DNA from: Anaerolineales bacterium | GTDB lineage: Bacteria; Chloroflexota; Anaerolineae; Anaerolineales; Villigracilaceae | DNA: 64,000 nt | Assembly: GCA_013140605.1 (NCBI GenBank) | Contig: JABFSL010000042.1 | Span: forward strand, 31,168 to 95,167 | Direction of reading: 5' to 3' | Shown: one piece after another, positions 22,671-41,461 of the stretch | Layout: each line of letters opens with the position of its first letter | How positions within the stretch are numbered: position 1 is the first letter of the stretch | Translations under genes and position numbers: made by a program | The notes under the pieces: model-generated | Databases searched by the model: none | What the model was told of the DNA's origin: nothing | What the model saw: only the letters and a program-made list of their open reading frames with translations

Positions 22671-23870
22671 TTATTCAACATGGTCGAGATATTTTAATCC
22701 CGAACCTGTGTTGAAGATCACAACGCGCTCATCAGGTTCGATCCATTTTTGCGTGATGAGTTCCTTCAATGCGGCCAGTGTCGCGGCGCCTTCAGGAGCG
22801 GCGAAGATACCTTCCTGCACGGCCAGATTTTTCTGCGCTTCAAGGATGGCCGCATCGCTGACGGCTACTGCCGTCCCTGCGCTTTCGCGGATGTTTGCAA
22901 GAATGAGACGGTCTGCGAAACTCTTTGGCACGCGTAAACCGGATGCCATCGTTTGCGCACCCAGCCAAAAGTCACAGAATGATGCGCCTGAGTTGAATGC
23001 CTTGATGACCGGCGCGCATCCTTCCGCCTGTACCGATACCATGCGCGGACGTTTTGTATCGTTCAGCCAGCCAAGTTCTTCGAGTTCGTTAAAGGCCTTC
23101 CACATGCCGACGAGTCCCGTGCCGCCGCCGGTTGGGTAGATGATCACATCGGGCAGTGTCCAGTCGAAGGATTCTGCCAGCTCGTAGCCCATGATCTTTT
23201 TGCCTTCCATGCGATACGGCTCTTTGAAGGTTGAGACATCGAACCAGCCTTCGGCGTGGGCTTTTTCGCCAGCCATGCCGGCCGCGTCGCTGATGAGTCC
23301 ATCCACAAGGATAACTTCAGCGCCCGCAATTCGGCTTTCGATGATATTTGCGGTTGGCGTGTCTTTCGGCATATAGATTAGCGCCTGCATACCGGCACGC
23401 GCGGCGTAAGCCGCCATGGCACCGCCAGCGTTGCCAGCGGTGGGGATAATAACTTTTTTAATGCCCAGTTCCCTGGCCTTGGATATGGCGGCTGAAAGTC
23501 CGCGCGCTTTGAATGAGCCAGTGGGATTACTGCTTTCATCTTTAACAAAAAGATTGGAGAGCCCCAGATCGTTTCCTGTTCTGGGGAGATGCAAGATGGC
23601 TGTGTCGCCTTCGCCCAGCGTAACCATGTTTTGAGGTTCACGCACGGGCAACAGTTCATGCCAGCGCCACATGCCTTTGAGCCGCATATGGACTTCGTCG
23701 CGGTCTACATGCTGCTTTGCAGCAGCAAGATCGTAATTGACAATAAGGGGTGACTGGCAATTGGGACAATACGTATGAATTTCAGCGGCCGAGAATAATG
23801 TCCCGCAATCGGAGCATTGCAGTTCGGTCATGTATGAGATTTTTTCAGGGATGTTCACTTTGTTGGGCAT
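22671..23870 (-). CDS. Threonine synthase-like PLP enzyme (stand-alone paralog)
   Basis: N-terminal CxxC..CxxC, PTGSFKARG PLP lysine, TAGNAG, PTGGGTG; start set to ATG 23870 behind TGnTACAAT; substrate unverified. Confidence 0.85.
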   Translation of the reverse strand: MPNKVNIPEKISYMTELQCSDCGTLFSAAEIHTYCPNCQSPLIVNYDLAAAKQHVDRDEVHMRLKGMWRWHELLPVREPQNMVTLGEGDTAILHLPRTGNDLGLSNLFVKDESSNPTGSFKARGLSAAISKARELGIKKVIIPTAGNAGGAMAAYAARAGMQALIYMPKDTPTANIIESRIAGAEVILVDGLISDAAGMAGEKAHAEGWFDVSTFKEPYRMEGKKIMGYELAESFDWTLPDVIIYPTGGGTGLVGMWKAFNELEELGWLNDTKRPRMVSVQAEGCAPVIKAFNSGASFCDFWLGAQTMASGLRVPKSFADRLILANIRESAGTAVAVSDAAILEAQKNLAVQEGIFAAPEGAATLAALKELITQKWIEPDERVVIFNTGSGLKYLDHVE

Positions 23871-23900
23871 GGGATATTGTAGCATTTATGGTTATTGATT

Positions 23901-24290
<390 letters not shown>

Positions 24291-24301
24291 AGCGTTCTCC
24301 T

Positions 24302-25945
24302 TTATGCTCCGTTCTTATCTTCAATGGTATGGATTAGTTGATCAACAAATTTTCGAGGCTGCAACGAGCCTTTTTGATACAAGGCTTCGATATTGCCGTT
24401 CAATCTTCTTCGTTCTTCAACGGTGATGTCTTTTGCGCTGACAACAACCACCGGAATATCCCTGGTGCGCGGATCGAGTTTGAGTTCCTCCACCAGGCCA
24501 AATCCATCCATGCCGGGCATGGTCAGGTCGGTGATGATAAGGTCGGGCAATTTTTGACGCGCCATTGCCAGTCCTTCCCAGCCGTCATTGGCATGATATA
24601 CCCGATAGGATTTTTTTCCTTCGAGCAGGCGGCGGATGAGCAAGGCATCGTCCGGGTTATCGTCAATCAATAGCACTGTGGTTGTCTTCTCATCCAGGTT
24701 TTCAAGCGCGGCTTCCAATCCTTCGCGCGGGGCGGGCGCTTGCGACTCGCTTAAGTGGACATCCACTGCAAATTGATCTTCGAGCACATGCTTTTCAACC
24801 GGGAAGGTATGTCCTGTACAATTGACCACCACAGTTTCATCTTTTCCAATAATGTCATTTCGAAGCATTTTTTCAAGGCCTGCAAATGCCACCGCTGTTG
24901 CCGGCTCCACAGCCATGCCTTCGCTTTTCGCAAGCGCACGCATGGATGCAAAGGCTTCAGCGTCTGTTACAGATTCCATGATGCCGCCAAATTTTTGCGT
25001 GAGATTCCACAGATAGGTGTACGATTTGCCCGGGTCGCCGGTGGAAAGAATAATGATGCGCGTATCGGGAATGACAGGTTCTGCAGTATCTTTGCCAGCT
25101 TTGAAGGCCTTCACCATAGGTGAACAACCTTCGGCCTGGATGACTGCCAGTTTGGGAACGCGTTCGATCAAACCCATTTTATGAAGTTCTGTAAATCCCT
25201 GATACACACCCAGCGGCCCCAATCCGCCGCTTACTGATTGGATATACCAATCCGGCGCTCTCCAGCCAAGCTGCTCCACGATCTCGTATGCGATGGTCTT
25301 CATGGATTCGCGGGCGGGGATGGAACTGGAGCCGCGGTCGAGCCACAAATGTTTTCTTTGGGCGAATTGGGATGCGATCTGTTTTGTCTGATCGTAATTG
25401 CCGCTGACTCGAATAACCTCCGCGCCGAAGAGAGCGGCTTCTCGCAGCTTTTCCTGCGGAACGAGGCTGGTCATAAAGACCCAGAGCTTGATCCCAGCCC
25501 GGGCACAGGCGGCGGCGTATGCGACAGCGGCATTGCCGGTCGAAGCGATGACTGCCTCGCGGATGCCGCCTTCATTCATTGCGGCGACAGCCACAGCGGC
25601 CTGACGGTCTTTGAAGGAACTGGTCGGCCCGTAGCGTTCATCCTTCAAGTAAACAGAATCATGCCCGAGCGCAGGGGCGAAGCGTTGCGACAGCCAGAGC
25701 GGAGTCCCGCCAGCGGGGTAGAGGTCCAAAGCGTTGAGATTGTTGAGCGGTAAGACATCCGAATAACGCCACATGTTGGCGGGGCGGTTGGGCAGGCCGC
25801 GCAAAATTTCGCGTTTGAATGCGGTGTAATCATAACGGGCTTCGAGCCATTGCGCGCCGCAGTGAACGCAGGTTGCGGGTATGAAGGCTTCGTAGGGTTG
25901 CTGCTTCCCGCAAATATTACATTCCAAAAATTTCGGTGTCGCCAT
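24302..25945 (-). CDS. Threonine synthase-like PLP enzyme fused to a C-terminal receiver domain
   Basis: CxxC..CxxC, PTSSFKDRQ, STGNAA, EPATA; then IDDNPDD..ITDLTMPGMDG..SAK..QKG; start moved from 26188 to 25945. Confidence 0.88.
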   Translation of the reverse strand: MATPKFLECNICGKQQPYEAFIPATCVHCGAQWLEARYDYTAFKREILRGLPNRPANMWRYSDVLPLNNLNALDLYPAGGTPLWLSQRFAPALGHDSVYLKDERYGPTSSFKDRQAAVAVAAMNEGGIREAVIASTGNAAVAYAAACARAGIKLWVFMTSLVPQEKLREAALFGAEVIRVSGNYDQTKQIASQFAQRKHLWLDRGSSSIPARESMKTIAYEIVEQLGWRAPDWYIQSVSGGLGPLGVYQGFTELHKMGLIERVPKLAVIQAEGCSPMVKAFKAGKDTAEPVIPDTRIIILSTGDPGKSYTYLWNLTQKFGGIMESVTDAEAFASMRALAKSEGMAVEPATAVAFAGLEKMLRNDIIGKDETVVVNCTGHTFPVEKHVLEDQFAVDVHLSESQAPAPREGLEAALENLDEKTTTVLLIDDNPDDALLIRRLLEGKKSYRVYHANDGWEGLAMARQKLPDLIITDLTMPGMDGFGLVEELKLDPRTRDIPVVVVSAKDITVEERRRLNGNIEALYQKGSLQPRKFVDQLIHTIEDKNGA

Positions 25946-25946
25946 T

Positions 25947-28739
25947 TTATTTTTCCGTTTTCTCGATCGGTTCAGCGAGTTTTGCTTCAAGCGGCAGTTC
26001 CACAAAGAAGGTACAGCCTTCGCCTGGGATGCCGGTACTTTCTGCCCAAATGTGACCGCCATGCATTTCCACGAGACGGCGGCTGATGGGCAGGCCGAGA
26101 CCTGTGCCGCCGGCTTTGCGTGTGGTGGATGAATCCACTTGTGTAAACTCCTGGAAGACCGCTTCCAATTTGTCGGTGGGGATGCCAATGCCGGTGTCGT
26201 GGACAGCGATCAAGGCATGCTCATTTTGTAATGAGGCGCTCAGGGAGATTTTGCCTTTCTCTGTAAACTTAATTGCGTTGTTGACGATGTTGATCATGAT
26301 CTGGCGCAGGCGGGTGCGGTCTGCAAATATTTCCAATTCCTGATCTGAATTGCTCTCGATAAACAGCGAGAGATTTTTTTCGCTTGCCAGCGTGGATGTG
26401 ATGCTGGTTACTTCTTCGAGGATTTCGTGAACCCTGAGTTTTTCAGGCGCCAGGTTCATCTTGCCTGATTCGATCTTGGCCATATCCAACACATCGTTGA
26501 TCAGGTGCAGGAGGTGTTGTCCATTTTTCTGGATCAACCCCAGGTCGTTGGCCATGTTTTCTGTCAGCGGGCCATCCAGTTCTTCGAGCATTACATCAGA
26601 GAAACCGAGGATGGAGTTGAGCGGTGTGCGTAATTCGTGTGACATGTTGGCGAGGAAGGATGACTTGAGGCGATCCAACTCGCGCAATTGAGTTACAGTT
26701 GCAGATTGTTCCATGTATAGACGGGCGTTTTGTAAAGCCACTGCCACTTGTGATGCAAGGGTGGTGTAGATGTTGGCATCTTCCGTGCTGAAATGCCCCA
26801 CTAAATCGGATTGGACATCGAACACACCGATAACCTTATCGCCTGAGATCATTGGCACAGCCATTTCTGAGCGGGTTTCAGGGAGAAATGGGTTGGGGAG
26901 AAAATCAGGGTCACTCCGTATATCATTCACGATGATGGCGCTGCGCGCGCGGGTGGCGCGTGCCATAAGGGATTTTTCATCGTCCATTTGAATGGAGTGA
27001 CCTGCGGCAACCATTTGCCTGCCGACTTCGCCCGCGCCTGCCGCGAGTAACAGCGTATTCCATGATTGATCGGCGAGATAGATGTGAGTATGGTAGATCT
27101 TGAAGCGTTCCTTTGTCAGGTCCACAACGGATTGCAGTAATTCATCCGGGTTCAACACGGTGGAGGCTGTTGAGCTAACGACGGCCACCGTTTCCAGTTG
27201 GTTCGCGCGCTGCGCCAAAATCGCTTCGTCACGCTTGCGCTGGGTAATGTCACGTTGGACGGCTACAAACTGGAGAATTTCTCCGCGTTCATCTGCAATA
27301 GGTGAGATGGTGAGTTGGGCGTTGTAAAAAGAGCCGTCTTTGTGACGATTTGTTACTTCACCGCTCCATGTCTGACCCGATAGAATGGTTCCCCACATAA
27401 CTTTATAGAAGTTTGCATCCTGTTCCCCGCTCTTAAGCAGGCGCGGGTTGCCTCCCATAGCCTCATTCACTGTATAGCCAGTGGTTTTCTCAAAAGCGGG
27501 ATTGGCGAATTGAATAGTGCCTGTGCGGTCGGTGATGACAACCATATCGGCTGTAGACTCGACCGCGCGAGCCAGACGGCGGGTTTCTGCCAGCGACTTC
27601 TGTGTCTCTTCGAACAAGCGCAGGTTTTCGAGGTGTACGCTGACCCGTTCCGCAATGGCGAGTGCCATCTCGGCGGCCTGCGGCGGAATTTCCTTCCAGC
27701 CTGCCACAGCCAATTGGCCGATGGTCTCACCGCGCACTGTGAGAGGCTGCGTAAAATTTACTTCCTGCGTAATGGGTGATTCTTTGATGGATGTGACTTG
27801 ATTGGAATCGTAAACAAAACCGAGGGTGGAAAGATCCTTGTTGGTGGTGTAGGTCTGCCAGCTTTCGTGGGTGAGGCGGCGGGTGGCTGATTCTGCTTCG
27901 GCGCGGGCGCGTGATGCATCTGCCAGCAGGCGGATGTTTTCCACTTGTTGCGCAACTTGTTTTGCGATTGCGCTGACCATTACCTTGTCGTCGCTTGTGA
28001 ATGGATGGGATGGGTCGGGTTCCAAATACAAGGTCCCGACATGTTCATCCATGACATTCACAGATTCGCGGAAACCTTCATCAGATTGCGGCTTTTCCAC
28101 ATCATAAGGTAAGACAGAGGCCTGATCGTAAGAATAGCCAACGCGTTCACTGTGATGAATCGCGTCGAGATAAGAATCCCAGTTTTCGTGCATGAAGCGG
28201 CGGGTGGCTGATTCTGCTTCGGCGCGGGCACGTTCCGTGGCGGTGAGCAGGCGCAGGTTCTGGATTTGAAGCGAAGCCTGTTGGGCAACGGCGTTGAGCA
28301 GGCTGGTTTCATCTTTTGTCCAAGGACGTTCAGACGGCGGTTCGATCTGCATTTCACCGATCAATTGTCCGCTGGCTGTTAGTGGAGCAGTGATGGCATC
28401 TGTCCCTTCGTTTGTTTCAGGTGACAGCAATTGAAGCGACTTCACTCCATCCTTGGAATATGAATAGCCCATATGCTCCTTCTCATAAAGCATGGGAGCT
28501 GTGGGACGCTGCGGCGTATCATTAATAATGGGTGCGTCTTCCTGTATGGCGGAGCGTTTTTCGCTTTCCAAAAACTGCGTTTCCAGTTCGCAAAGGCGTT
28601 TATATAACTCCTTGATTTCCGCATGAAATACAGATGGAGAAATGGACGGGTCGGCCTTGATACTTTCCATATCTGCGAAAAGCGCATCAAGCCGCTGACG
28701 AAATTGGTTGTTGAACATGCCTGCTATCTCCTGAACCAT
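25947..28739 (-). CDS. Soluble histidine kinase: three partial GAF-like units, PAS, GAF, HisKA, HATPase
   Basis: NMSHELRTPLNSI, NNAIKFT, DTGIGI and GGTGLGL motifs; PAS (ITDRTGTIQFANPAFE); no TM segment. Confidence 0.93.
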   Translation of the reverse strand: MVQEIAGMFNNQFRQRLDALFADMESIKADPSISPSVFHAEIKELYKRLCELETQFLESEKRSAIQEDAPIINDTPQRPTAPMLYEKEHMGYSYSKDGVKSLQLLSPETNEGTDAITAPLTASGQLIGEMQIEPPSERPWTKDETSLLNAVAQQASLQIQNLRLLTATERARAEAESATRRFMHENWDSYLDAIHHSERVGYSYDQASVLPYDVEKPQSDEGFRESVNVMDEHVGTLYLEPDPSHPFTSDDKVMVSAIAKQVAQQVENIRLLADASRARAEAESATRRLTHESWQTYTTNKDLSTLGFVYDSNQVTSIKESPITQEVNFTQPLTVRGETIGQLAVAGWKEIPPQAAEMALAIAERVSVHLENLRLFEETQKSLAETRRLARAVESTADMVVITDRTGTIQFANPAFEKTTGYTVNEAMGGNPRLLKSGEQDANFYKVMWGTILSGQTWSGEVTNRHKDGSFYNAQLTISPIADERGEILQFVAVQRDITQRKRDEAILAQRANQLETVAVVSSTASTVLNPDELLQSVVDLTKERFKIYHTHIYLADQSWNTLLLAAGAGEVGRQMVAAGHSIQMDDEKSLMARATRARSAIIVNDIRSDPDFLPNPFLPETRSEMAVPMISGDKVIGVFDVQSDLVGHFSTEDANIYTTLASQVAVALQNARLYMEQSATVTQLRELDRLKSSFLANMSHELRTPLNSILGFSDVMLEELDGPLTENMANDLGLIQKNGQHLLHLINDVLDMAKIESGKMNLAPEKLRVHEILEEVTSITSTLASEKNLSLFIESNSDQELEIFADRTRLRQIMINIVNNAIKFTEKGKISLSASLQNEHALIAVHDTGIGIPTDKLEAVFQEFTQVDSSTTRKAGGTGLGLPISRRLVEMHGGHIWAESTGIPGEGCTFFVELPLEAKLAEPIEKTEK

Positions 28740-28779: not shown

Positions 28780-31563
28780 TTAATTATTATGATCCTTCAT
28801 GCCTAACTGGGCGATGGTAAGCGGCGCGCCGAGGGCATGTCCCAATTCACGCGCTGCAATTTGAAGCACGGCTTCCACTGTGGTGGCGCTCTGGATCTTC
28901 TGGCTGATGGTGTTTAACATACTTTCACGTTCAGCCTGCTGCTGTGATTTGGAAAATGATTTGGCGTTCTGCAAAGCGGTGGATACCTGAGACGCAAGAG
29001 TGGTATAGATATTGGCATCCTCTTCCGAGAAGGCGTTGATGCGCTCCGATTGCACATCCAGCACACCCAGGATCTGATCGCCGATGTTCAATGGCACCGC
29101 CATTTCGGAAGCGGTATCAGGCAGAACCGGATTGGGCAGCCAGCCTGGCTCATTATGCACATCATTGACAATCACGGCTTGCCTGGTGCGGGCAGAGCGC
29201 GCCACAAGCGATTGCTCCTGCGCTATTGGAATAACCGCAGTGCCATCCGTGCCTTCATGTGGGTCGCCTTCCTTATAACCACAGGCGACAATCTTAAGCT
29301 CCGCTGTGTTTTCGTCATAGATAAAAATGTGGGCATGGTACAAGCCGAATTGACGCTGGGTCAAATGCACCACCGAGTGCAGCATTTTATCAACATCCAG
29401 TTCTCTGGATGAAACGGAACTGACCTCGGCAACCGCCGCGAGCTGGTGGGCGCGTTTATCGAGTTCGATCTCGCCGCGTTTGGTTTCTTCAAACAGGCGC
29501 AGGTTTTCGATATGGGCACCAAGGCGTTCGGCAACCGCATTGGCAAGTTCAAGGGATTCTGCATCATCAGATCCAAGGCCCTGAATAACGAGTTTGCCAA
29601 CGGTCTCATCATGGATTTTGAGCGGCAGGGTGGTGGAAGACTCTTCGGTCTGTTGATCTGCATTTTGATCGTATGGCCGCACTTCCTTCAAATCATATTT
29701 AAAGCTCAAGCCTTCACCGGCATTTGTCTCCACATAATCTTTCCAGCCTTCACGTGTAAGGCGGCGTGAGGCTTCTTCCGCCTCGAAACGATAACGTTCC
29801 GCGCTATCAAGCAGGCGCAGACTTTCGATCTGCTGTGCCACCTGACGCGCCACGATGTTGACCAGTTCGGAAGTGCGCGCAATCGGCGATTGGTTTTCCA
29901 TTTCCACAACTAAATTTCCGAGCGATTCACCAATGACCGCAATTGACGCAGTCAAAGTGTTATCGTTTATTTGCAATTGAGATTGTTCCACCGGGGTGAT
30001 TGGTGCGATCTTACTTTGCTCGTACACAAAACCGATCTCTTCGGGTTTATGTATGGCATCCAGGTAATCTTTCCAATTGGCGCGTGACTGGCGTTGAGCT
30101 TGAGATTCAACGTCAGCGCGGGCTTGTTCCGTCTCTGCAAGGAAGGTGGCGTTTTGGATGGCGATGGCTAATTGTCCCGCCAGAGCTTCAAACGCGGTTA
30201 ATTCTTCCTGATTCAACTTGTTGACTTCGTGGCTTTGCATATCCAGCACACCCACCACTCGTTCACCGATAATCAGCGGAACAGCCATTTCAGAACGGGT
30301 CTCTGGCAGGAGCGGATTTGGTTTGAAGGTGGTGCTGGCGCTGGTATTTGAGATAATCACAGAGCGTTTCTCGATTGCGGCCCGTCCGTTGATCGATGCG
30401 TTATTTAACGGTAGTTGGTGCGCACGCGCAACCAGTTCCGCGCCGACTGTTCCAGTACCAGATTGCAGAATCAGGGCGGTCCGACTCGGATTCGTCAAAT
30501 AGACTTGCACATAGTAAAGATCAAATCGTGAACGGATGAGTTCGGTGGCGTCATTTAACATAACATCCAGAGAACGTACTTGCGATACAGCGCGCGCTAC
30601 TTCGGCGGCGAGTTTAAGGCTATGGGTACCTTCTGCTACGCGTTGTTCCAGTGTGCCAAACAGATTCTTCAACTGTAAAGCCATTGAGTTGAAGGCCGCG
30701 CCAAGCACGGAAACTTCGTCGCGACCAGCCACATCTATGAACTGGTCCAGATTACCCTGCTGCAGGGATGCGGTGCTGTGGGTTAGGATTCTCAAGCGGC
30801 TGGTAATCGAAACCACGATCAGGTAGCTTAGAAAGAGGCCGAGAACCAAACCAATGACCAGAACGATGAAGCCGGTAAGGAGCGCTTGTTGGAACGAGGC
30901 TTGCGCCAATGTGTTTGAGAATTCAGCATAAGTATTGTTAACATCGATCAACGTCTGAAGGCTGGCGCGGGCAGCTTGAAGGTTTTGGAGCGCCTCATTC
31001 ACAAGGGCATCATCCGGGGTTCCTGTTTGAACTGATACCAGATAATTTTCAATGGCGCTCTTATATACACTGAACGCTGTATGGAATGATTTCAGAGCCG
31101 CAAGTTCCTGTTGCTGTAAGCCGAGCTTGCCTGCGTCCCGTAAGGATTGCGTGAATTCAGGGCTGACGGTTGTTACCCATTCAGTGTCATAGCGGGCGAT
31201 GGTATCAGCTGTCAATTTGTTATCTGACTGAATTGCATCAATGTTCTCCGCTGCTTCCTGTTCTGTGGCTTCATCAAGGTTCTCGATCTGATATTGCGCA
31301 TCTGCCAGGGCGGTGTCTGCGTGATTAATGGCGACAATCGGGATCAACATGAAGTCATAGATATTGGAGAGTTGATAACGCATGGATTGCAGGCCGCTAT
31401 AAGCGGCGCCCGCAACACCCAGTGTGCCTAGAAAAAGTACAAATGCCATTAAGGCCATTTTCCAGGCAAGGGAGATATTTCCAAGAAATCCCAAAAGGAA
31501 CAACTGTTGGCCTGCTGGTGATTTGGAAGCTTGTCCGGTCTTGAATAACTGATTAGTGGTCAT
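28780..31563 (-). CDS. Membrane sensor without output domain: 4HB-like periplasmic domain, HAMP, GAF, two partial GAF units, GAF, partial-GAF tail
   Basis: 2 TM segments; HAMP (RDEVSVLGAAFNSM); LPETRSEMAVP GAFs; no H-box, GGDEF or MCP signalling domain. Confidence 0.85.
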   Translation of the reverse strand: MTTNQLFKTGQASKSPAGQQLFLLGFLGNISLAWKMALMAFVLFLGTLGVAGAAYSGLQSMRYQLSNIYDFMLIPIVAINHADTALADAQYQIENLDEATEQEAAENIDAIQSDNKLTADTIARYDTEWVTTVSPEFTQSLRDAGKLGLQQQELAALKSFHTAFSVYKSAIENYLVSVQTGTPDDALVNEALQNLQAARASLQTLIDVNNTYAEFSNTLAQASFQQALLTGFIVLVIGLVLGLFLSYLIVVSITSRLRILTHSTASLQQGNLDQFIDVAGRDEVSVLGAAFNSMALQLKNLFGTLEQRVAEGTHSLKLAAEVARAVSQVRSLDVMLNDATELIRSRFDLYYVQVYLTNPSRTALILQSGTGTVGAELVARAHQLPLNNASINGRAAIEKRSVIISNTSASTTFKPNPLLPETRSEMAVPLIIGERVVGVLDMQSHEVNKLNQEELTAFEALAGQLAIAIQNATFLAETEQARADVESQAQRQSRANWKDYLDAIHKPEEIGFVYEQSKIAPITPVEQSQLQINDNTLTASIAVIGESLGNLVVEMENQSPIARTSELVNIVARQVAQQIESLRLLDSAERYRFEAEEASRRLTREGWKDYVETNAGEGLSFKYDLKEVRPYDQNADQQTEESSTTLPLKIHDETVGKLVIQGLGSDDAESLELANAVAERLGAHIENLRLFEETKRGEIELDKRAHQLAAVAEVSSVSSRELDVDKMLHSVVHLTQRQFGLYHAHIFIYDENTAELKIVACGYKEGDPHEGTDGTAVIPIAQEQSLVARSARTRQAVIVNDVHNEPGWLPNPVLPDTASEMAVPLNIGDQILGVLDVQSERINAFSEEDANIYTTLASQVSTALQNAKSFSKSQQQAERESMLNTISQKIQSATTVEAVLQIAARELGHALGAPLTIAQLGMKDHNN

Positions 31564-31596: not shown

Positions 31597-33474
31597 TCAG
31601 TTGAGATTGGAGTCATTGCCAACATCCTGACGGCTGGCAATACTGGCACTGACACGAGATGCTCCGAGCGCCAGCCCAATTTCGCGGATGGCTGTTTGCA
31701 ACGTATCGTCCACTGTAGTGGCTCGCTGTATCTTCTGGCCGATGGCATTGACCAGAGACTCAAGATCTGCTTGCGCTTTGGATTGCTCAAACGCGCGCAC
31801 GTTTTGAATGGATGTGGATACCTGCGAAGCCAGTGTGACCTGGATATTGATATCTGAATCGGTGAAGCGGCCAACTTGATCCGATTGCACATCGAAGACG
31901 CCAATCACCTTTCCACCGACGATCATGGGCACAGCCAGTTCTGAGCGGGTGTTTGGGAGCAGGGCATTGGGCAGGAAGTCTGCCGCCTGTGTTACATCAT
32001 TGACGGTAACGCCTTTTCGTTCGCGGGCAGCGCGGGCTACCAGTGATTGTTCGCGGTTGAGCGGGATGGAGAGTCCCTTTGCCATCATTTGACGTCCCGC
32101 TTCGCCCGCGCCTGAAGCCAGCACCAGATTTTCGCCGGACTCATCCAATAGATAGATGTGAGAGTGATATAAGTTGAAGCGTTCTTTTGAGAGGTTCACC
32201 ACTTCCTGTAAGAGTTTTTCGCTTTCCAGAATTGTGGCGGTCGCGGTTCCCACTTCAGCCACTGTCGCGAGTTCCGTGGCGCGGCGACGAACTTCTTCGA
32301 ATGCCTGTTGCAGGCGGGAGGTCATGGAGTTGAACGTTTGCGCCAGGAGGCCAACCTCGTCACCGGAAGAAACTTCAGCCTGTACATCGAAGTTGCCCGA
32401 GGCGATCTGTTCAGCGGTGTTTGTCAACGATGTGACTGGCCGGGTAATTTGTCGTGATAGTGCGATTGAAACAATAATGGTGAGGGCCAGAACGACCATG
32501 ATCGTAATAATTGAATATGTAAAGGTTTGGGTACTGGTTGTTTGAGCAGTACTAATATCCTCAGCCGCGAGTTGTTCACCCAATGCTTCGATCTTTGTCG
32601 ATAGCGGCTCAATCTCGCGGGCGGCAGCGATCATCGCCGCGTCGTATTCAGCGATTTCCCTGTCCTTGGTCACGAGCACATCGAAGGCCGTTTGGTAGGT
32701 ACCGGCCAGGTTTCTTAGCTCGGTCTTTTCGGCGACTTGGAGCAGGTCGGATGCAGTCGCTTGGTTTTTGAACTGGGTGACCAATGTATGAACATCATCA
32801 ATATATCCTTGATCCTTACGCGCCAGATAATCCTTTTCATTACGACGGATTTGCAACAGGGTAATTTCCAGATTTTCCAATCCTGCCTGATCGGAGATTT
32901 TAACTTCAATATCATGCGCCACATTACGCACGTCACCCAAAAAGCCGGTATTTTCATCTTCACCATATTGCCTGGAGACTTCAACGAGTGTGAGGAAGCT
33001 CTGATTGTATTTATCAGTGAGTTGGGTTAGTGAAGCGATATCAGCCTCATATTGCGCCTGGGTCATATCACCTGTCGAAACAGTCGCCGCTAAAGGTCCA
33101 AAGGGAGCCAGTAATTTAATGTGTTCGTGCATCAAGGCAATATTTTCGTTGTAAGGAATCACATAGTTGGTGTAGGCCGTATCATATCCTTCGTTTTGCC
33201 AGCGCAGAATAAAGTTTTTCTCATAACGGCGGGCTTGCAGCAAGTAGATTTGCAATTCGTCCGATAAATTTTGAACCTGGCCGCCTTGTGACAGAGCGTG
33301 TTCATAAGTGGTCTGTACTTGATTTAACCCCCGCAGAGTGACGCCAGCAATAATCAGCGCAAAAACGAACATGACACTGAAAGCCAGCATCAATTTAAGC
33401 GAGAGGCGAAGGTCACCCCAGAAGCCAAAGTGCTTCTCTGATGAAATCGAATTAGAAGTTGAGGTTATGTTCAT
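31597..33474 (-). CDS. Membrane sensor without output domain: chemoreceptor-like helical periplasmic domain, HAMP, GAF, partial-GAF tail
   Basis: two LQARRYEKNF/LQIRRNEKDY helical modules; DEVGLLAQTFNSM HAMP; one full GAF. Confidence 0.85.
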   Translation of the reverse strand: MNITSTSNSISSEKHFGFWGDLRLSLKLMLAFSVMFVFALIIAGVTLRGLNQVQTTYEHALSQGGQVQNLSDELQIYLLQARRYEKNFILRWQNEGYDTAYTNYVIPYNENIALMHEHIKLLAPFGPLAATVSTGDMTQAQYEADIASLTQLTDKYNQSFLTLVEVSRQYGEDENTGFLGDVRNVAHDIEVKISDQAGLENLEITLLQIRRNEKDYLARKDQGYIDDVHTLVTQFKNQATASDLLQVAEKTELRNLAGTYQTAFDVLVTKDREIAEYDAAMIAAAREIEPLSTKIEALGEQLAAEDISTAQTTSTQTFTYSIITIMVVLALTIIVSIALSRQITRPVTSLTNTAEQIASGNFDVQAEVSSGDEVGLLAQTFNSMTSRLQQAFEEVRRRATELATVAEVGTATATILESEKLLQEVVNLSKERFNLYHSHIYLLDESGENLVLASGAGEAGRQMMAKGLSIPLNREQSLVARAARERKGVTVNDVTQAADFLPNALLPNTRSELAVPMIVGGKVIGVFDVQSDQVGRFTDSDINIQVTLASQVSTSIQNVRAFEQSKAQADLESLVNAIGQKIQRATTVDDTLQTAIREIGLALGASRVSASIASRQDVGNDSNLN

Positions 33475-33492: not shown

Positions 33493-35478
33493 TTAGTTGC
33501 TTTTGTGCTCATCGGCCAGCACTTCGGGATCAAGCGCGACCATGGTGTGCCGCATCCCCAGCGCGTGACCGAGTTCGCGAGCCGCAGTCTGCAGCGCCGC
33601 TTCGATGGTTGGCGCGTTTTGGATTTTCTGAGTAATCAAGTTGATGGCTTCCTGCTGGGCAGCGCGTTTGCGGTTGAGTTCCTCCAAGCGGCGGCGCTCA
33701 GTAACATCCTGATTTGCGCCATACCAGCGGATAATCTTTCCATCCTTATCACGCTCTACATTAATGTTTACTGTAATGTAGCCTAGTTCACCGTCTGAAA
33801 AAATGATACGGTGTTCCAGTGCCGTGTGGAGGTGGCGTTCTTTGGAGTCCATAACTTTTTGAATCTCACCCCCTACAAGCGCTGCATCATCGGGGTGGAC
33901 AAAATTCCGTGCATAGTCAGCAGAGGATATTTTGTACCCGCCAACCTTTTCGGCAGTGGTGCGGAAAATCGAATAGAACTGATCGTTGAAGGTAAAGAGA
34001 TCTTTCTCCACATCGTATTCCCAGTTGGCAAGGCGGGCGATCTTGAGCGCATCGGACAAAAGAACCTGACTACGTTGGATTTCCGTGTACGACTGCGCAT
34101 TTTGCACGGCAATAGCAACCTGGTTCGCGATGGATTGCAGTGAGTCAACATCCTCCTGCTTTAGGCCGTCAATAATATTGTGTTGCACATCCAACACGCC
34201 CAGAACTTCATCCCCGATGGAGATCGGAATTGCTGTTTCGGATTTGGTATCAGGCAGCAACTGGTTGGGCAGCCAGTCGGGGTTTTGAGCCGTATCCGAT
34301 ACCAGAATCGGCTGGTTGCTGTCTGCCGCACGACCTACAAGGCCGCGGCCTTTCGGGACTTTATGCTCTTTTGCCAGCATCGTTGCACCGGCTTCCCCTG
34401 TGCCGCCCGCCATAACCAGATTTTCATTAGCTTCATCGTAAAAGTAGATTTGAGTATGATAGTAGCCGAAGGCATTGTTTACCTGATTCACCACCTCGAT
34501 CACCAGTTCCTTCCGATTAAGAATTGTGGAAAGACGACGGCTTACTTGAGTGGATGTGGCAAGCGCTTTGGTGCGGTCTGCCACGCGTTGTTCCAACCCG
34601 CTGAGGATATCTTTCAGTTGCGTGATCATGCTGTTGAATGAGCGGGCGAGCATGCCAATTTCATCAGTGCTTGTGGCATCAGCATAAGCGTCGAGATTCC
34701 CTTTGGCAATTTGATTGGCGGTCAGAGCTAGTTGACTAACTGGTGTTACCACTGAGCGAACGATGAAAAAGCCCAGAGTGATTGTGATTAAAACGGTTGC
34801 TATGATTAACGTGATAAGAAACGTTATGGAACGGTTGATTAAGGACTGGACATCCGTTTCCTTTTTTTGGATCTCCACGTGTTGTAATTGAACTGCCCGG
34901 TCAATGGCGGAACGGTGAGATTCGTAATCTGGTGTGAGTATCTCATCAAAAATTTTATCGGCTTCCTGAAGTTTGTCCGCTCGAATGGCTGGTATCAATT
35001 GATTATTGACAACTTCAAAGAAATTTTTAGCAGGCAGGTAGGAGTCAATAAGGAGCGCCTGCTCAATATCCTTGTTTTCAATTTCTTCAGAAGCCAGTGT
35101 TTCGACCCAGTAGGCATGCCGCGCCTTATACTCATTTTGCAGCACGGGTATTTTTTCGATCAAACTGTCCACTGATGCCGTGTTCCCCTCCTTGGCGGCT
35201 TCCAATAATAGCGATGTTGTGAGATATGACTCAATGATGTAGGCCGGGGGCGGCAAAATATCGGCCACTAATTCTTGATTCTGTGTAAGCTGTTTATACA
35301 GTGGACCATTAACCTGTACCGTGCTCATTGTATTAAAAGCAAAAGCTGCAAAGGTACCCAAACCAACCACACTGATCGCTATTAATGTGGATAATTTGAT
35401 TCCGACGCGTAAGTTTGAAAAAAAGGGAAATAATCTTGGACGCGGGTTGCCGGATGAATTAAGGTCAGGTGTTTTCAT
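33493..35478 (-). CDS. Membrane sensor without output domain: MCP-like ligand-binding domain, HAMP, GAF, PAS/PAC, partial-GAF tail
   Basis: [25 protein letters not shown]-type head; [15 protein letters not shown]; WEYD..HPDD PAS_3. Confidence 0.85.
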
Positions 35479-37856
35479 ATTTTAGCCTCTTCATGGTTTG
35501 AAAAATCAATAATTGATGGGATCGATTCTTTGGTAGTCGCTATACACGGGAGGGTAACGATAAAACGTGAACCTTTACTCATTTCGCTTTCCACCTTTAC
35601 CTGCCCGCCATGTTGTTCGGCAATGGCTTTGACAATTGCCAGTCCCAGCCCATTGCCTTCCACCTTGTTATGTTCTCCATCGCGCACGCGATAGAAGCGG
35701 TCAAAAATAAAGGGCAGGTCTGCGGCGGGAATTCCCAAACCGTTATCCCGCACATCCACTTGAATATTTTCCCTGTTCATATTCATGGACACTATGATGT
35801 GCCCGCCTTGCTGTGTGTACTTGATGGCATTTCCCACTAAATTGCGGAACAATTGCTTTAATTGCAGGCGGTCGCCGTTTACATGCTCGGGAAAATCAAG
35901 CGGATGGAATTGAAGCGCCTGCTCTTTAACCTCTGCTTGCGGATTGAATTCATCAATTACATCCACGAGCAATTCGGTCACTTCCACCGGCTCATGGTTT
36001 TGCGCCGTATTCAGATCCGACTGAACGAGATGCATCATGCTTTGCACAAGTTCACTCATGGAGGCTGCCGCATTTTGAATTCGCTGCATGAACCTCATCT
36101 GCACATCATTGAGCGGACCAGCTTGTGAGAGCAGTTCACTAAAGCCCACAATCGCTGTGATGGGATTTTTTAGATCATGCGATGCGGTCGCAATGAATTC
36201 ATTCTTCACGCGCTCGATATTTTTGAAACGCGTTACATCCTGCAAAATGGCGACCAGTCCGCCGGACTCTATCGAGGTAATGAGCGCCATAAAGGTGCGT
36301 TGATCGGGCCATGTGATTTCTCCCGTTTTGGATAGGCCGCTCAGACGGGCCTCTTCCAGCATCTTCAAAAGCGCATCGCAGCCATGCCCTGCTTCCAAAG
36401 GACGGTTCAGAATGGCATTGAAATCTGTGAATAAATCTTCGCCCGCGGGGTTGAGCAGGCTCAAATTCCCATCCGCGTCGAACATAAAAATCGCCTCGTC
36501 CGCGTTTTGCAAAACAGCAGAGAGACGTTTTTGTTGTTTTGCAACATCCTCATATAACAACGCATTTTCCATTGCAATGGCCGCCTGACTGGCAATGGCC
36601 TGCAACAGCAATAGATGTTCCAGTTGGAAGTAATGGATTTTTTCATGCGCCAATACCAGCAAGCCCAGCAGGTGTTGACGGCCAAACATTGGGACGATCA
36701 CCGCCGAGCGGGTTGGGTCATTTATGACAGACTGCCAGCGCGGTTCGTTATGCACATCATCAAGGATCAGACTCTCGCGTGTCTCGTTGATCTCTTTCAT
36801 GAAATTTTCAAAGTTTGGACAATCGCTTTGAGTGGAAGCGGAAGTGCTGTATGTTTTTTCTAATGGGTGGTGCGGGTCAAGTACAACAATATGCCCCATG
36901 ATCGCACCCAGGGTTTCGACTGTCCGCCGCAGGACAACACTGGTCAACTCGTTGATATCCAGCCGCGCACTTAATTCCTTGCCGATCTCAGGCAGCATGC
37001 TCAACTGGCGGTTGCGGCGGCGGATCGCATCTTCAAATGATTTGGTGCGGAGCTTGGCGCGAATGCGCGCAAACAATTCGCGGCGATCAAATGGTTTCGT
37101 AATGTAATCGTCAGCGCCCAAATTCAAACCCGCCTGAATTTGATCCGGGTGCAGGCGTGCCGCAGTGAAGATAATGACCGGGATATGCTCGATGACTGGG
37201 TCAGCGCGGATTTCCTTTAATACAGCAAATCCATCCTTATCCGGCATATTCACATCCAGAAGGATCAGGTCTGGCATTTCAGTGCGTGTTTTTTCCAACG
37301 CCTCCGCCCCGTTAAACGCCGATATATAGGAATAGCCTTCACTGTTCATATAACGTGACAACAGGGTCACGTTATCGGGCATGTCATCAACGATCAATAT
37401 TTTGAAAGGTTCTATTTCTTCCGCCGCCGGCACCGTGATTGGAGCATGCCCAATGGATTTCATGACATTCCCAACGATCTGACAAATGCGTTCTGGCCGC
37501 ACAGGCTTGATGATGGTTTCATCCACCTTTAAACGTCGCGCAGTTTCCTTTAGGCCGGGCACATCATAAGCAGTGATCAAAATGGTATGTGTGGGCCTGC
37601 CGCCGGAATTGGACTGGATTTTCTCGATCAATTCCAGGCCATTCATGCCGGGCATCATCATATCGGTGATGAGCATATCCACTGAATTGCCCGCGACCCG
37701 TTCCAGCGCTTCGCTTCCGCTGCAGGCGGAAATCACATTAACCTCGGTCCCCATTTGCGAGATGGCGCGGGCCAAAGTTGCCGCTGTGGCGGGATGATCA
37801 TCCACAACCAAAATGCGGATGGAATTTGAAGCTTTGAGAGAATCATGGTTTTCCAT
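35475..37856 (-). CDS. Hybrid histidine kinase REC-REC-GAF-PAS-HisKA-HATPase
   Basis: ITDMMMPG and LLDVNMPD receivers; ASHDLKNP H-box; GNAIKYT and GLGLAI motifs. Confidence 0.93.
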
Positions 37857-37978: not shown

Positions 37979-38006
37979 TCCAATAAACAGGATCAGCGCT
38001 GGAAAT

Positions 38007-38801
38007 TTAATCTGCCACGAGACGATAGCCCAGTCCGCGCACGTTGATCAAATAAGCGGGCGCATGAGCATCATTTTCGATTGCCTGCCGCAGTTGATGA
38101 ATATGCCATTTGGTTAATTCCTGCGCTTCGCGCGCATCTGCCTGATAGCCCTGCGCTTCGGCCACCAAAGTTTGCCAATCGACCGCATTCGGCGAATGCC
38201 GCATAAGCACCAAAAGATAGTTGAACGATGTGGGCGGCAAATTGATGACGCGTTCGCCGATCTTCAAACGTTGACCGTGAAGATCAAGAATCAATGCGCC
38301 GCGCTTAATGAAGCGGTCTGTTGTTGGGGTTGTCTGTGTTGTTTCCACAGTTTCCCCGCTTTCCAAATTTTTTAATTCAGTCTGCAATGATTCGATCTGC
38401 ATCACGATCTCACGCTTGCGTCTTTCCTTTTGACGCCCTGCGAGGATCACTTTTGTTTTTGCAATGATCACTTCCGGCTTAAGTGGTTTCAACAAATAAT
38501 CAGTCGCGCCGCGCCGCAGGGCTTCCACTGCCGAGTTCAGGTCAGGCTGGGCGGTAAATAGAATCACTGGCAGGGTTGGGTATCTGGCATGGATGACATT
38601 GAGAACATCCAGCCCGCTTAGTCCGGGCATGCGCAGATCCATGTAGGCCATGTCGAAATTGGAACTTTGCAATAAGGAGAGACCCTGCTCGCCGTTTTCA
38701 GCGGTAGTGACTTCAAAGCCCGCCTGTATCAAAACACGAGCCAGTGTTTTTCGCAGCAGCGGTTCATCGTCAATGATCAAAATGTGTCCGCTGATATTCA
38801 T
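38007..38801 (-). CDS. OmpR-like response regulator (REC, coiled linker, winged helix)
   Basis: IIDDE, YMDLRMPG, DYLLKP; HIHQLRQAIE..INVRGLGYRL. Confidence 0.92.
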   Translation of the reverse strand: MNISGHILIIDDEPLLRKTLARVLIQAGFEVTTAENGEQGLSLLQSSNFDMAYMDLRMPGLSGLDVLNVIHARYPTLPVILFTAQPDLNSAVEALRRGATDYLLKPLKPEVIIAKTKVILAGRQKERRKREIVMQIESLQTELKNLESGETVETTQTTPTTDRFIKRGALILDLHGQRLKIGERVINLPPTSFNYLLVLMRHSPNAVDWQTLVAEAQGYQADAREAQELTKWHIHQLRQAIENDAHAPAYLINVRGLGYRLVAD

Positions 38802-41461
38802 TGGTTTTCCCTTTTTTCAATGGGCAGCCACACACTGAATGTAGCTCCGCGCTGTGAGTTGTTTTCAGCTTGAATGCGCCCGCCGTGTTTGGTGACAATA
38901 TCATAGGAAATGGTCAGGCCGAGACCGGTACCGGTTTCCTTGTCTGTTATAAACGCTTCGAAGATGCTGTGCAGGATGGATGGATTGATGCCGATGCCGG
39001 TATCTGCTACTTTCAGAAGGATTTCCCCGCTCTGCATTAAGTATTGTGTGGAAATGGTCAGGCGGCCGCCGCTCGTCATGGCTTCCGCGGCGTTCATTAC
39101 CAAATTGAGCAAAACCTGTCTGATCTGATCCACCAGGCCGGGGATGGTTGGAAGGTTCGGGTCGGGGTAAAACTCAAAGGATATTTCATTATGGCGCAAA
39201 TGTGTGGCGATCAATGCGTACACATCTTCAATGAGGTCGTTGACCTGCATTGGTTGAAAATCCTCCATTTGAGCAGGACGATAGGTGGCGCGCAGGCGGG
39301 CGATCAAGGCAGCCATCCGTTCGGATTCCGAAAGCACGATATCAAGGTCTTGTTTTCCCTGCGGAGAGATCCCTTTTTCTTCACGCAACAAAAAGAGCGC
39401 GTTCTGTATCGCTTGCAAGGGGTTGTTCAATTCATGTGAAACAGAAGCGAGCAGGCGTCCCATTGTGGCGAGACGTTCATTTTGTACCAATTGATCGCGC
39501 ATGGCTTTTTCGGTTTGCAGGGATGTTTGCAGGTGGGCATATAAGTTCGCTTTTTGCAAAGCGATGGCCAGTTGGTCTGCGACCGCGCTGACCAGTTGAA
39601 TATCGCGTGGCCCAAGTGAGCGCGGCGGGATCTGTTGAATATCCAGTACCCCCAGGATACGCCCGTCAATTTTGACAGGCACAGCCAGTTCTGATTTTGT
39701 GTCTGGCAGTAATGGGTTTCGAACGAAAAAATGTATTTGGTCCACATCATTTGTAAAAAATGGGGACCCGGTTTCTGCTGTATACCCTACGATGCCTTCG
39801 CCCGCGCGCAGGCGATGATTTTTTTCCTTTAGTTTCACGCCAATTTCAGTACTGCCTGTGTGCATAATTAAGTCGCCGTTTTGCGGCTCAACGGTATAAA
39901 CCTGAACATGGTAGTACTCGAAGTTTTTTTGCAGCAACTCCACCGCATCCTGCAATAATTCGTGCGGATCCAGCGATGCAACCAGCTTTTGATTAATGCT
40001 GTATAAGGCGTTTGATTCTTTCAAAGCCTGTTGAATGCTTTCCAGCAAATGCGCATTTTCAATGGCAATAGCGGCCTGCGTTCCGAGCGCGCTGAGCAGG
40101 CGGGTTTCATCTTCTGTAAACGCATCCACCAAACTACTTTGCACGCTGATGGTGCCCAATTTTTTTTCGCCGCTTTGTACCGGGGCGACCATGAGCGAAC
40201 GATAGGAAGGAGGCGTGTTACCAAAAGCCACAAAACGCGGGTCTGTGCCAACATCTGTAATGTTGATCGTTTCACCTTTGACGATGACTTGCCCTGCCAC
40301 GCCTTCGTTGGGGCGTATTTTTATTGTTTTCCAATTCGTGGCGTCTTCAGCGTAGCCGATGACTGCCTCTGCTGTGAGAATTTGCTGCTCTTCATCCAAA
40401 AGATGAATCACAGCCTGTTCTGTTGAGGGTATTAATTCCTTTGTTGAATTAACGATCAACTGCAATACCGTACTTAACCCAACACGTTCCGTCTCGCTTA
40501 AGGCGCGCCCTATATTTGCAAGCGCATTTGTTTCTCTAAGCCGTTTTTGAATCTCAACTTCCTGCTGAACTGTCCAAAGAACAAGCGCAATTTGATCACC
40601 GGCTTGTTGCGCTTGTTCAATCTCTTCAGGTGTGAATTGATGTGGGGCGCTATATGTGAGAACAGCCGCGCCCAGTTTATATCCTCTTGCAATAAAAGGT
40701 ATGCCGAGCATGGATTGAATTGGAAATGCAGAATCTTTGGAAAGTGTGGAATTGACGGCGTACTGAGAATTTGGCACATCATTAACAGCCAGGATTTGTC
40801 TGGTTCGCAATACCGACTCTGTTATTTCTGATGCCACCGATTCCATTATGGTTTTGGAATCGACCTGCTCCGACTGTACAGTTGATATTATGAGAGCTGT
40901 CTTTTCCTGGGGCGCATCCCAATGAACGAGATACCCATAATCGGCGATAAATAAGTTTACAAGGTGATTAAGTAGAAAGTAATACTTCTCACCGGGTTTT
41001 TTGATGTTCAGAATATCACTGGTTGTTATCTTGAGCAGAGTGAGATAACGTTCCCGGGAGCGCAATTGATTTTCTGTTTGCAGGCGGGCATCAAGAATTT
41101 GTCTTAATCGTCCTGTGATCACACCTATAAGGATAAAAATAATGCTGCCAAATGGATAACCACCATAAAATACAGACTCCCAGGCATATCCACCATATTC
41201 GATTAAAAGGATGGCGGTAAGAATGACTGCCAGCAAACTAGCTGTAACGCCTCCCAACATACCTAAAAACCATCCCGCCACAATGATGGGAATTGCCGCT
41301 AACATGACAATGCCATCTCCATATAATTGGATGAGCCATGCTGCGCTGATCCAATAGACTGCCGTCAGGCCAACAACAATCCCCCATTTCTGGAGATGCG
41401 ATAGGGATCTCATTCCCATTATTTTAGCATCTCCAAATTTGGGGGATTTCATTTGTAACAA
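38798..41461 (-). CDS. Membrane histidine kinase with three GAF domains
   Basis: N-terminal TM bundle; 3 GAFs; SVSHELNNPL, NAAEAM, DTGIGI and GTGLGL motifs; start uncertain. Confidence 0.92.
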   Translation of the reverse strand: MLQMKSPKFGDAKIMGMRSLSHLQKWGIVVGLTAVYWISAAWLIQLYGDGIVMLAAIPIIVAGWFLGMLGGVTASLLAVILTAILLIEYGGYAWESVFYGGYPFGSIIFILIGVITGRLRQILDARLQTENQLRSRERYLTLLKITTSDILNIKKPGEKYYFLLNHLVNLFIADYGYLVHWDAPQEKTALIISTVQSEQVDSKTIMESVASEITESVLRTRQILAVNDVPNSQYAVNSTLSKDSAFPIQSMLGIPFIARGYKLGAAVLTYSAPHQFTPEEIEQAQQAGDQIALVLWTVQQEVEIQKRLRETNALANIGRALSETERVGLSTVLQLIVNSTKELIPSTEQAVIHLLDEEQQILTAEAVIGYAEDATNWKTIKIRPNEGVAGQVIVKGETINITDVGTDPRFVAFGNTPPSYRSLMVAPVQSGEKKLGTISVQSSLVDAFTEDETRLLSALGTQAAIAIENAHLLESIQQALKESNALYSINQKLVASLDPHELLQDAVELLQKNFEYYHVQVYTVEPQNGDLIMHTGSTEIGVKLKEKNHRLRAGEGIVGYTAETGSPFFTNDVDQIHFFVRNPLLPDTKSELAVPVKIDGRILGVLDIQQIPPRSLGPRDIQLVSAVADQLAIALQKANLYAHLQTSLQTEKAMRDQLVQNERLATMGRLLASVSHELNNPLQAIQNALFLLREEKGISPQGKQDLDIVLSESERMAALIARLRATYRPAQMEDFQPMQVNDLIEDVYALIATHLRHNEISFEFYPDPNLPTIPGLVDQIRQVLLNLVMNAAEAMTSGGRLTISTQYLMQSGEILLKVADTGIGINPSILHSIFEAFITDKETGTGLGLTISYDIVTKHGGRIQAENNSQRGATFSVWLPIEKRENQ

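Follow-up and report, generated by a model that had tools for sequence, protein, structure and literature searches.

The output of a two-component system is almost always a transcription factor, an enzyme of cyclic-di-GMP metabolism or the chemotaxis machinery. Here we describe a cluster of ten co-oriented genes (minus strand, positions 22671-41461) in a stretch of 64,000 nucleotides from an Anaerolineales bacterium (assembly GCA_013140605.1, contig JABFSL010000042.1, positions 31,168 to 95,167), hereafter the window. In this cluster, a soluble histidine kinase (HK3) is encoded next to ThrC-REC, a fusion of a threonine-synthase-like pyridoxal phosphate (PLP) domain with a phosphoryl receiver (REC), and next to three kinase-less membrane sensors (S1, S2 and S3) that share a C-terminal motif, the tail. 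The gene neighbourhoods of relatives support the view that the locus is a conserved multi-sensor two-component system with the ThrC-like/receiver fusion as its dedicated partner. At a probability of roughly 55%, we further read it as the "type A" copy of a family-wide Anaerolineae system, in which an array of receptors would control a kinase that switches a PLP enzyme.

The chemosensory arrays (MCP-CheW-CheA-CheY) resemble this locus in several respects. They also have several kinase-less transmembrane (TM) receptors with HAMP domains, one of which here bears a 4HB_MCP head, the most conserved part of the receptor is the membrane-distal helical tip, and a soluble kinase and single-domain receivers are encoded alongside. 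A ParA-like ATPase in paralogous loci (type B, see below) recalls ParC and PpfA, which are ParA-like ATPases that accompany chemoreceptor clusters. However, the locus lacks an MCP signalling domain, CheA, CheW, CheR and CheB, its kinase is an ordinary HisKA/HATPase protein, and its receptor tip is a hairpin of approximately 45 aa resembling the N-terminus of a GAF domain, with a putative coupling to the kinase.

Response regulators with an enzymatic output, such as CheB, PleD/WspR, RpfG and the PP2C-type proteins, likewise join an intact receiver to an enzyme and are encoded beside a kinase. ThrC-REC, however, has a fold-type-II PLP domain as its output, and the order is reversed, with the receiver at the C-terminus. 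No described response regulator with a fold-type-II PLP output was found in the literature, nor was any description of the ThrC-REC fusion, in a search that did not include the tail-bearing sensor family. The nearest PLP precedent found is the LdcI family of fold-type-I basic amino-acid decarboxylases, including Rv2531c of M. tuberculosis, in which a CheY-fold 'wing' domain influences the oligomeric state (PMC12329521). There too, a PLP enzyme is joined to a CheY-fold domain, but this domain has a structural role and an N-terminal or central position, the PLP fold is of type I, and no partner kinase has been reported, whereas the receiver of ThrC-REC has all of the residues of phospho-chemistry and a kinase gene lies 1 nt upstream. 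Compared with threonine synthase (NF006050; 1UIM, 2ZSJ, 2D1F), ThrC-REC has an added receiver, a replaced Arg motif and a clade of its own. Finally, DivJ/PleC-DivK-PleD, the CheY1/CheY2 sink of Sinorhizobium and RedCDEF of Myxococcus also combine one kinase with several receivers, some of them single-domain, and have no Hpt. Their components are, however, related to those described here by generic domains only, and none of these systems has kinase-less HAMP-GAF receptors or a PLP output.

ThrC-REC is universal in one Anaerolineae family (21 of 21 sampled genomes) and is found in several other Chloroflexota families. If our reading is true, ThrC-REC would represent a new class of enzymatic response regulator acting directly on amino-acid chemistry, and the system would be a second, independently evolved solution for connecting many receptors to one kinase, a solution otherwise known from chemotaxis arrays. 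It would also offer a handle on environmental sensing by the abundant, poorly cultured Anaerolineae of wastewater, groundwater and sediment.

Gene content of the locus

An earlier note, made from the sequence of this DNA alone, had described ten genes with the domains given below, two ATGA overlaps and a 14-nt gap after rny, and all of these are present in the list of open reading frames (ORFs), the Pfam scan and the sequence. The genes, in the direction of transcription, are as follows.

38798-41461, minus strand: HK1, a membrane-anchored histidine kinase of 887 aa, 3xGAF-HisKA-HATPase (Pfam, TM scan)
38007-38801, minus strand: OmpR-type response regulator, REC and winged helix (Trans_reg_C) (Pfam)
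35475-37856, minus strand: RRHK, a REC-REC-GAF-HisKA-HATPase kinase with two N-terminal receivers (Pfam)
33493-35478, minus strand: S1, a kinase-less sensor with TM, outer domain of about 170 aa, TM, HAMP, GAF, PAS and tail (Pfam, TM scan, tail hidden Markov model [HMM])
31597-33474, minus strand: S2, a kinase-less sensor with TM, outer domain of about 260 aa, TM, HAMP, GAF and tail (Pfam, TM scan, tail HMM)
28780-31563, minus strand: S3, a kinase-less sensor with 4HB_MCP head, HAMP, GAF, two mini-GAF repeats, GAF and tail (Pfam, repeat and tail HMMs)
25947-28739, minus strand: HK3, a soluble PAS-GAF-HisKA-HATPase kinase with three mini-GAF repeats (Pfam, TM scan)
24302-25945, minus strand: ThrC-REC, 547 aa, PALP and Response_reg (Pfam, NCBIfam)
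23901-24290, minus strand: lone single-domain receiver, 129 aa (Pfam)
22671-23885, minus strand: thrC, a 404-aa zinc-ribbon-type threonine synthase, PALP (ThrC404) (Pfam, NCBIfam)

According to Pfam, none of the ten proteins contains a CheA, CheW, CheR, CheB, GGDEF, EAL, Hpt, aspartokinase or homoserine-kinase domain. The earlier note was right that the cluster has no cheA, cheW, cheR, cheB, GGDEF/EAL, thrA or thrB gene. It went too far in proposing a phosphorelay, at least in the His-Asp-His-Asp sense, because no Hpt domain occurs in any of the ten proteins. The five receiver domains of the locus are recognized by PF00072 and all retain the acidic pair, the phospho-accepting Asp, the Thr/Ser and the Lys. 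The OmpR-type regulator scores 105.3 bits for REC and 45.2 bits for Trans_reg_C, which places it in the OmpR/PhoB family, and its predicted role is that of a second, transcriptional output.

The ThrC-REC fusion protein

ThrC-REC consists of a Cys4 zinc ribbon, a threonine-synthase-like fold-type-II PLP domain, a flexible linker of approximately 40 aa and a C-terminal receiver. Its ORF was listed as 24302-26188, and the real start is the ATG at 25945, 1 nt after the HK3 stop, which yields 547 aa; homologues have 546-572 aa and mostly exactly 547. The PLP lysine, Lys112, is encoded at 25610-25612, and the phospho-accepting Asp473 is encoded at 24527-24529.

The PLP domain belongs to fold type II (PALP, PF00291, 235.9 bits against a cut-off of 35), and the closest solved structures are the threonine synthases 1UIM and 2ZSJ (E=2e-40). 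The zinc ribbon, the SFKDR lysine motif, the STGN loop and the TGH motif are common to ThrC-REC and threonine synthase. ThrC-REC nevertheless scores under both threonine-synthase equivalog cut-offs (NF006050, 250.2 against 303; TIGR00260, 162.1 against 167.1), and the other fusion members and the nearest stand-alone relatives also remain below 303 on NF006050. Thermus ThrC, ThrC404 (PYRMEGKK) and ThrC-LeuA_dimer fusions keep the motif PxR(L/M)EG(Q/K)K, in place of which the whole ThrC-REC fusion clade has IP(A/S)xE(S/A)MKT. We take Lys61 of Thermus ThrC to be the PLP lysine and Arg160, in the PxR motif, to bind the phosphate of the substrate, a role that was not confirmed in the literature. 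In the catalytic site of ThrC-REC, the lysine K112 is invariant and the Arg motif is replaced, and because of the loss of this motif plain threonine synthesis is disfavoured. Public records name the fusion "threonine synthase", which it probably is not, and annotators should be warned that this label is probably wrong.

Among 24 members that are 46-91% identical, the four zinc-ribbon Cys, K112 (SFKDR), the STGN loop, the SGGxG PLP-phosphate loop and Gly-His-Thr 378-380 of the TGHT motif are invariant (T377 varies), as are D429, D473 and K525 of the receiver, in which the residue after the Lys is a Gly that replaces the usual Pro. Between paralogous fusions, the PLP domain is better conserved than the REC domain. 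These features suggest a catalytically equipped PLP protein with an intact receiver. In a quick maximum likelihood search, with support from the Shimodaira-Hasegawa-like approximate likelihood ratio test (SH-aLRT) only, all fusions fall into one clade by their PLP domains (SH-aLRT 99). Its sister is a group of stand-alone ThrC-like proteins that are likewise under the ThrC cut-off, and fusions and sisters together (SH-aLRT 97) are separate from the clade of ThrC404, Thermus ThrC and a third paralogue of the same genome. A metagenome scan for the context of the nearest stand-alone ThrC-like protein (P0134) yielded further ThrC-REC fusions instead.

The same data bear on the possibility that the ThrC-like domain is an input, that is, a PLP or amino-acid sensor or a pseudo-enzyme that tunes its own receiver and diverts phosphate from or towards the lone receivers as the true effectors. 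Like that of CheV or of hybrid kinases, the receiver is C-terminal, here on a flexible linker. ThrC-REC always comes with one to three lone RECs, the presumed phosphate-binding Arg motif of threonine synthase is lost, and the protein fails the ThrC cut-offs. However, even deeply divergent members show no change in the catalytic Lys, the carboxylate loop or the PLP-phosphate loop. Moreover, the kinase of the type-B loci carries the extra RECs in its own chain, which leaves ThrC-REC as the sole free acceptor, and there an EamA gene directly follows the fusion, which suggests a small-molecule product. We therefore consider an input role unlikely.

Conservation of the core and its neighbourhood

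Relatives of ThrC-REC are encoded in at least 524 species genomes, among which the neighbourhood was counted in the best 80 loci (ThrC-REC 82-89% identity). Nearly all of these loci are labelled as metagenome-assembled genomes of Anaerolineales or other Chloroflexota, with the exception of one 1.6-kb contig binned as Pseudomonadota. Sufficient upstream sequence is available for 72 loci, and in each of them the fusion is immediately preceded by the end of a HisKA-HATPase core that resembles HK3 most; the adjacency of ThrC-like gene and kinase, on which the earlier note had made its proposal depend, is thus conserved. At least one lone receiver follows the fusion in 78 of 78 loci and two follow in 17, and in some lineages the lone receiver has been fused on, which yields ThrC-REC-REC single chains of 708-715 aa (P0124, P0125). 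In the window, the lone REC begins 11 nt after ThrC-REC and has an AGGAG ribosome-binding site. Of approximately 70 tabulated loci, most have one to three or more kinase-less sensors with a tail ahead of the kinase, and these counts are often limited only by the 10-kb flank. By gene order, a soluble HisKA kinase, ThrC-REC and one or more lone receivers make up the strictly conserved core. The more distant lineages of loci L087 and L088 have one long kinase ahead of the fusion, and no tails were found in them.

The synteny check beyond the core covers one family only. HK1, the OmpR-type gene and RRHK lie upstream of the sensor genes in five of five relatives from three genera; the full order recX-rny-HK1-OmpR-RRHK-sensors-HK-ThrC-REC-REC is present in four, and the fifth keeps HK1 onward without recX-rny. 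The spacer between rny and HK1 measures 70-331 nt in the relatives. The HK1 orthologues (41-59% identity) occupy the same position in all five, and the OmpR-type orthologues in these genomes are 62-69% identical. HK1 has approximately four N-terminal TM-like segments (residues 26-116). Both RECs of RRHK are intact, and its position upstream of the sensor array is conserved.

The TM scan detected no TM segment in HK3, which comprises an N-terminus of about 85 aa, three mini-GAF repeats of about 105 aa (27600-28487), a PAS domain, a GAF domain and a core of dimerization/histidine-phosphotransfer (DHp) and catalytic (CA) domains (25950-26699). Its 53 orthologues always have three repeats of this length, and their DHp domains are 85-96% identical. 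The PAS domain (residues 381-500, 27240-27599), which is present in only about 4% of the 53, is to be read as a lineage-specific insertion into a conserved kinase.

Co-occurrence was determined in 301 evenly sampled Chloroflexota genomes. Of these, 34 have full-length fusions, including all 21 of the window's family, and 32 have tails. Both are present in 27 genomes, the fusion only in 7, the tail only in 5 and neither in 262 (Fisher p=4e-27, a value that ignores phylogenetic non-independence). The fusion-only genomes are one genus of another class and G282, and the tail-only genomes have single weak tail matches. In nearly every fusion locus of the tail-positive genomes, tail-bearing ORFs lie 5-30 kb from the fusion on the same contig.

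A paralogous type-B system

Many relatives have a second fusion, which we term type B and which is 46-52% identical to the ThrC-REC of the window. The order in these loci (L085:3913-10643, L086:7018-13585, L091, L102:74-7625 and others) is tail sensors (up to about 10), a ParA/MinD-like ATPase, a hybrid kinase whose C-terminus bears one or two receivers, ThrC-REC and an EamA-family transporter. In 11 type-B loci, the transporter stands just after the fusion and the ATPase (AAA_31) stands just before the hybrid kinase. Pyruvate kinase is the next gene in several metagenome type-B loci. A GAF-kinase, a receiver-kinase and an OmpR-type regulator also lie alongside; in the genome of the window, HK1 is the best match of these type-B kinases, and the type-B OmpR has the window's OmpR as its second-best match only. 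The EamA family includes exporters of threonine/homoserine and of cysteine/O-acetylserine. The earlier suggestion of a metabolite other than threonine fits these data, considering that ThrC-REC fails both cut-offs, lacks PxR(L/M)EG and has a paralogue that is followed by an EamA transporter.

In the genome of the window itself, contig region C57:22743-43865 carries two lone receivers and then eight consecutive tail-bearing HAMP/GAF sensors, and the contig ends within a ninth sensor ORF. Because six of six sampled genomes of the same genus have type B, this array probably represents the 5' portion of a type-B locus, of which the ParA, hybrid kinase, ThrC-REC and EamA genes are unassembled.

The type-B loci also make it most improbable that independent two-component genes and a housekeeping thrC stand side by side in the 19-kb cluster by chance, held together by recent ancestry and having no joint function. 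The genes could form separate transcription units, given the gap of 150 nt that precedes RRHK and the promoter-like site in front of thrC, HK1 and the OmpR-type regulator resemble a self-contained classical pair, and synteny beyond the core was followed within a single family. Yet two paralogous systems (about 50% identity), as well as several families and classes, share the core and the sensor arrays, the tail family is found essentially only beside fusions, and the trio of GAF-HK, REC-HK and OmpR accompanies type B as well.

The adjacent threonine synthase

ThrC404 passes both equivalogs (NF006050, 574.7 against a cut-off of 303; TIGR00260, 182.9 against 167.1), scores 247.2 bits for PALP (cut-off 35) and is 30% identical to ThrC-REC. 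By these scores, it is a bona fide housekeeping threonine synthase. A gene of this kind adjoins the fusion downstream in 39 of 64 type-A loci (61%) and in L088, and it is absent from the type-B loci; because of this distribution, thrC is best described as a frequent but dispensable accessory neighbour and not as the defining output. The earlier note had counted two ThrC-like outputs, and this view stands for ThrC-REC, the dedicated and always-present partner, but not for ThrC404, which is an ordinary threonine synthase with an inconstant position.

The frequent adjacency could also mean that ThrC-REC is a phosphorylation-controlled regulatory paralogue that tunes ThrC404 via hetero-oligomers or substrate competition. 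The thrC gene is directly downstream in the loci counted above, and threonine synthases of this class are dimeric. However, thrC is missing from 39% of the type-A loci and all of the type-B loci, the two proteins, with their low identity, fall into separate clades (SH-aLRT 97), and thrC may have its own promoter. We regard such a regulatory role as very unlikely.

A third ThrC-like paralogue of 422 aa is encoded on another contig of the same genome (C51:44091-45302; L001:8116-9384), downstream of xanthine-dehydrogenase-type genes. It passes TIGR00260 and fails NF006050, and Thr replaces the Arg of its PxR motif. Homoserine dehydrogenase is present in this genome, and three thrB models detected no homoserine kinase of the three known types in the 96%-complete assembly. 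Because 17 of 21 relatives carry a canonical thrB, we consider the pathway ordinary and the missing thrB most likely an assembly gap, and we rejected the idea of an organism without homoserine kinase. Another regulatory fusion of the ThrC family was observed in P0202 and P0207 (611-620 aa), in which a ThrC-type PLP domain is joined to the LeuA allosteric/dimerization domain.

Kinase-less sensors and their conserved tail

S1, S2 and S3 contain no catalytic domain according to Pfam, and each ends in the common tail motif of approximately 45 aa, which has no Pfam match. The tail HMM locates it at 33529-33663 in S1 (residues 606-650, E=5e-21), at 31636-31773 in S2 (residues 568-613, E=7e-21) and at 28798-28938 in S3. 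In the 80 loci, 159 matches were found, 145 of them within 25 aa of the C-terminus; the others either have just a short low-complexity stretch behind them or stem from ORFs that have run together. Among 44 S3-like orthologues, which share approximately 30% identity elsewhere, the tail hardly varies, and it is the most conserved part of the sensor. AlphaFold2 (AF2) models it as the end of the long signalling helix and a second helix, that is, a helical hairpin, with a predicted local distance difference test (pLDDT) score of about 90. By these observations, the tail-bearing kinase-less sensors are a real, dedicated family. Of the parts of a chemoreceptor, S3 carries only the 4HB_MCP head and HAMP, and the locus contains no MCP signalling domain (PF00015), CheA or CheW and is not a chemosensory system of that type.

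The tail aligns weakly but co-linearly with the first 47 or so columns of GAF (columns 4-50; hhalign E=0.0024, probability 12%). The HK3 repeats match only GAF profile positions of about 84-133, and hhalign aligns them to the C-terminal 71 GAF columns with a probability of 99.5%; neither the repeats nor the sensor tails match a whole GAF domain. AF2 models the repeats of HK3 as complete small domains with modest confidence.

Three other interpretations of the tail and the sensors were considered. The tail is not a His-less mimic of DHp, for which hhalign gave a probability of 0.14% and 12 aligned columns. The sensors are not decayed kinases, as more than 70 loci conserve them in a kinase-less form whose tail is nearly invariant. 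Split-GAF complementation, in which each HK3 repeat would be paired with one tail, is compatible with the homology, the tail resembling the first part of GAF and the repeats its C-terminal half. Yet this idea is unsupported by the numbers, as tails vary from 1 to 10 and the repeats are always three. The same repeats are also present within S3, unaccompanied by tails, and the idea is further weakened by the AF2 models of complete repeats and by long sensor-kinase fusions that have no internal tail.

Genes for lipoprotein-type solute-binding proteins (approximately 320-340 aa, with a lipobox Cys) are interleaved with the tail sensors in relatives, and none occurs in the array of the window. They are located at the following positions.

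L007:1935-2906, solute-binding lipoprotein
L014:1620-2642, solute-binding lipoprotein
L031:3160-4158, solute-binding lipoprotein
L060:2460-3422, solute-binding lipoprotein
L079:3115-4074, solute-binding lipoprotein

Proposed mechanism

According to the reading that we prefer, the tail receptors, three here and up to about 10 elsewhere, would bind extracytoplasmic ligands. Signals would run down the HAMP/GAF/coiled-coil rods, and the conserved distal tail would allow the receptors to control soluble HK3, in a manner similar to that of chemoreceptor tips on CheA. HK3 would then phosphorylate Asp473 of ThrC-REC and the lone receiver, which may be a competing sink or a modulator. Phosphorylation would alter the activity or the oligomeric state of the PLP domain, which, not being a threonine synthase, may act on a threonine/homoserine-related or other amino-acid substrate, and HK1-OmpR and RRHK would add a transcriptional branch. 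Phosphotransfer and enzyme activity are here predicted from sequence. A threonine/homoserine-like metabolite as the product or substrate is hinted at because thrC is often adjacent in type A and EamA follows the fusion in type B.

Several points weigh against this proposal. The docking of the tails onto the kinase is purely conjectural, and the number of tails (1-10) does not match the constant three mini-GAF repeats. The AF2 model of ThrC-REC contains both domains (pLDDT 73, predicted TM score 0.62), but linker residues 379-420 are disordered and no confident contact between PLP and REC domains appears, and the model consequently offers no route from receiver phosphorylation to the PLP domain across these 40 aa. 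In distant lineages (g51, G282), tails are missing although the fusion is present, and the statistic for the association of fusions and tails takes no account of phylogenetic non-independence.

A more far-reaching version seems to us rather doubtful. It supposes a CheA/CheW-independent array, in which 3-10 receptors with hairpin tips act on one HisKA kinase and, through it, on the first response regulator with a PLP output, with a ParA-like ATPase in the paralogous loci; a threonine/homoserine-like metabolite would be made or removed, would be moved by EamA in the paralogous system and might serve as an exported signal.

Transcriptional layout and flanking genes

The features around the ten genes are as follows.

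41476-43658, minus strand: upstream context, recX (42999-43658) and rny (41476-43002) (NCBIfam: RNase Y 633 bits, RecX 144 bits)
23876-23904, minus strand: promoter-like TTGAAA-17-(TG)TACAAT between the lone REC stop and thrC (consensus scan)
22623-22666, no strand assigned: 20-bp hairpin, bidirectional terminator-like, between thrC and a convergent SPFH gene (sequence scan)

The TTG start of HK1 lies 14 nt past the rny stop, and in-frame ATGs occur at 41452 and 41419 (9 and 42 nt further). The start of the OmpR-type gene overlaps the HK1 stop (38801/38798) and the RRHK stop overlaps the S1 start (35478/35475), both as ATGA. The remaining intergenic gaps measure, in gene order, 150, 18, 33, 40, 1, 11 and 15 nt, the first of them being directly before RRHK. 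The promoter-like element, which is a consensus match only (10 of 12 positions, with an extended -10), covers the listed ATG of thrC, and because of this overlap the true start may be 23870 or 23831. Downstream of thrC, the hairpin at 22623-22666 closes the cluster. Two similar short hairpins (ATCTCC-loop-GGGGGAT type), which are 32 nt apart, were observed at 41379-41447, at the rny-HK1 junction and in the first HK1 codons. On the plus strand, genes for an MFS transporter, an MBL-fold hydrolase and an SPFH/HflK-like protein (19616-22583) converge on thrC; they are syntenic (63-93% identity) in a minority of related loci (approximately 15 of 80), even where thrC is absent.

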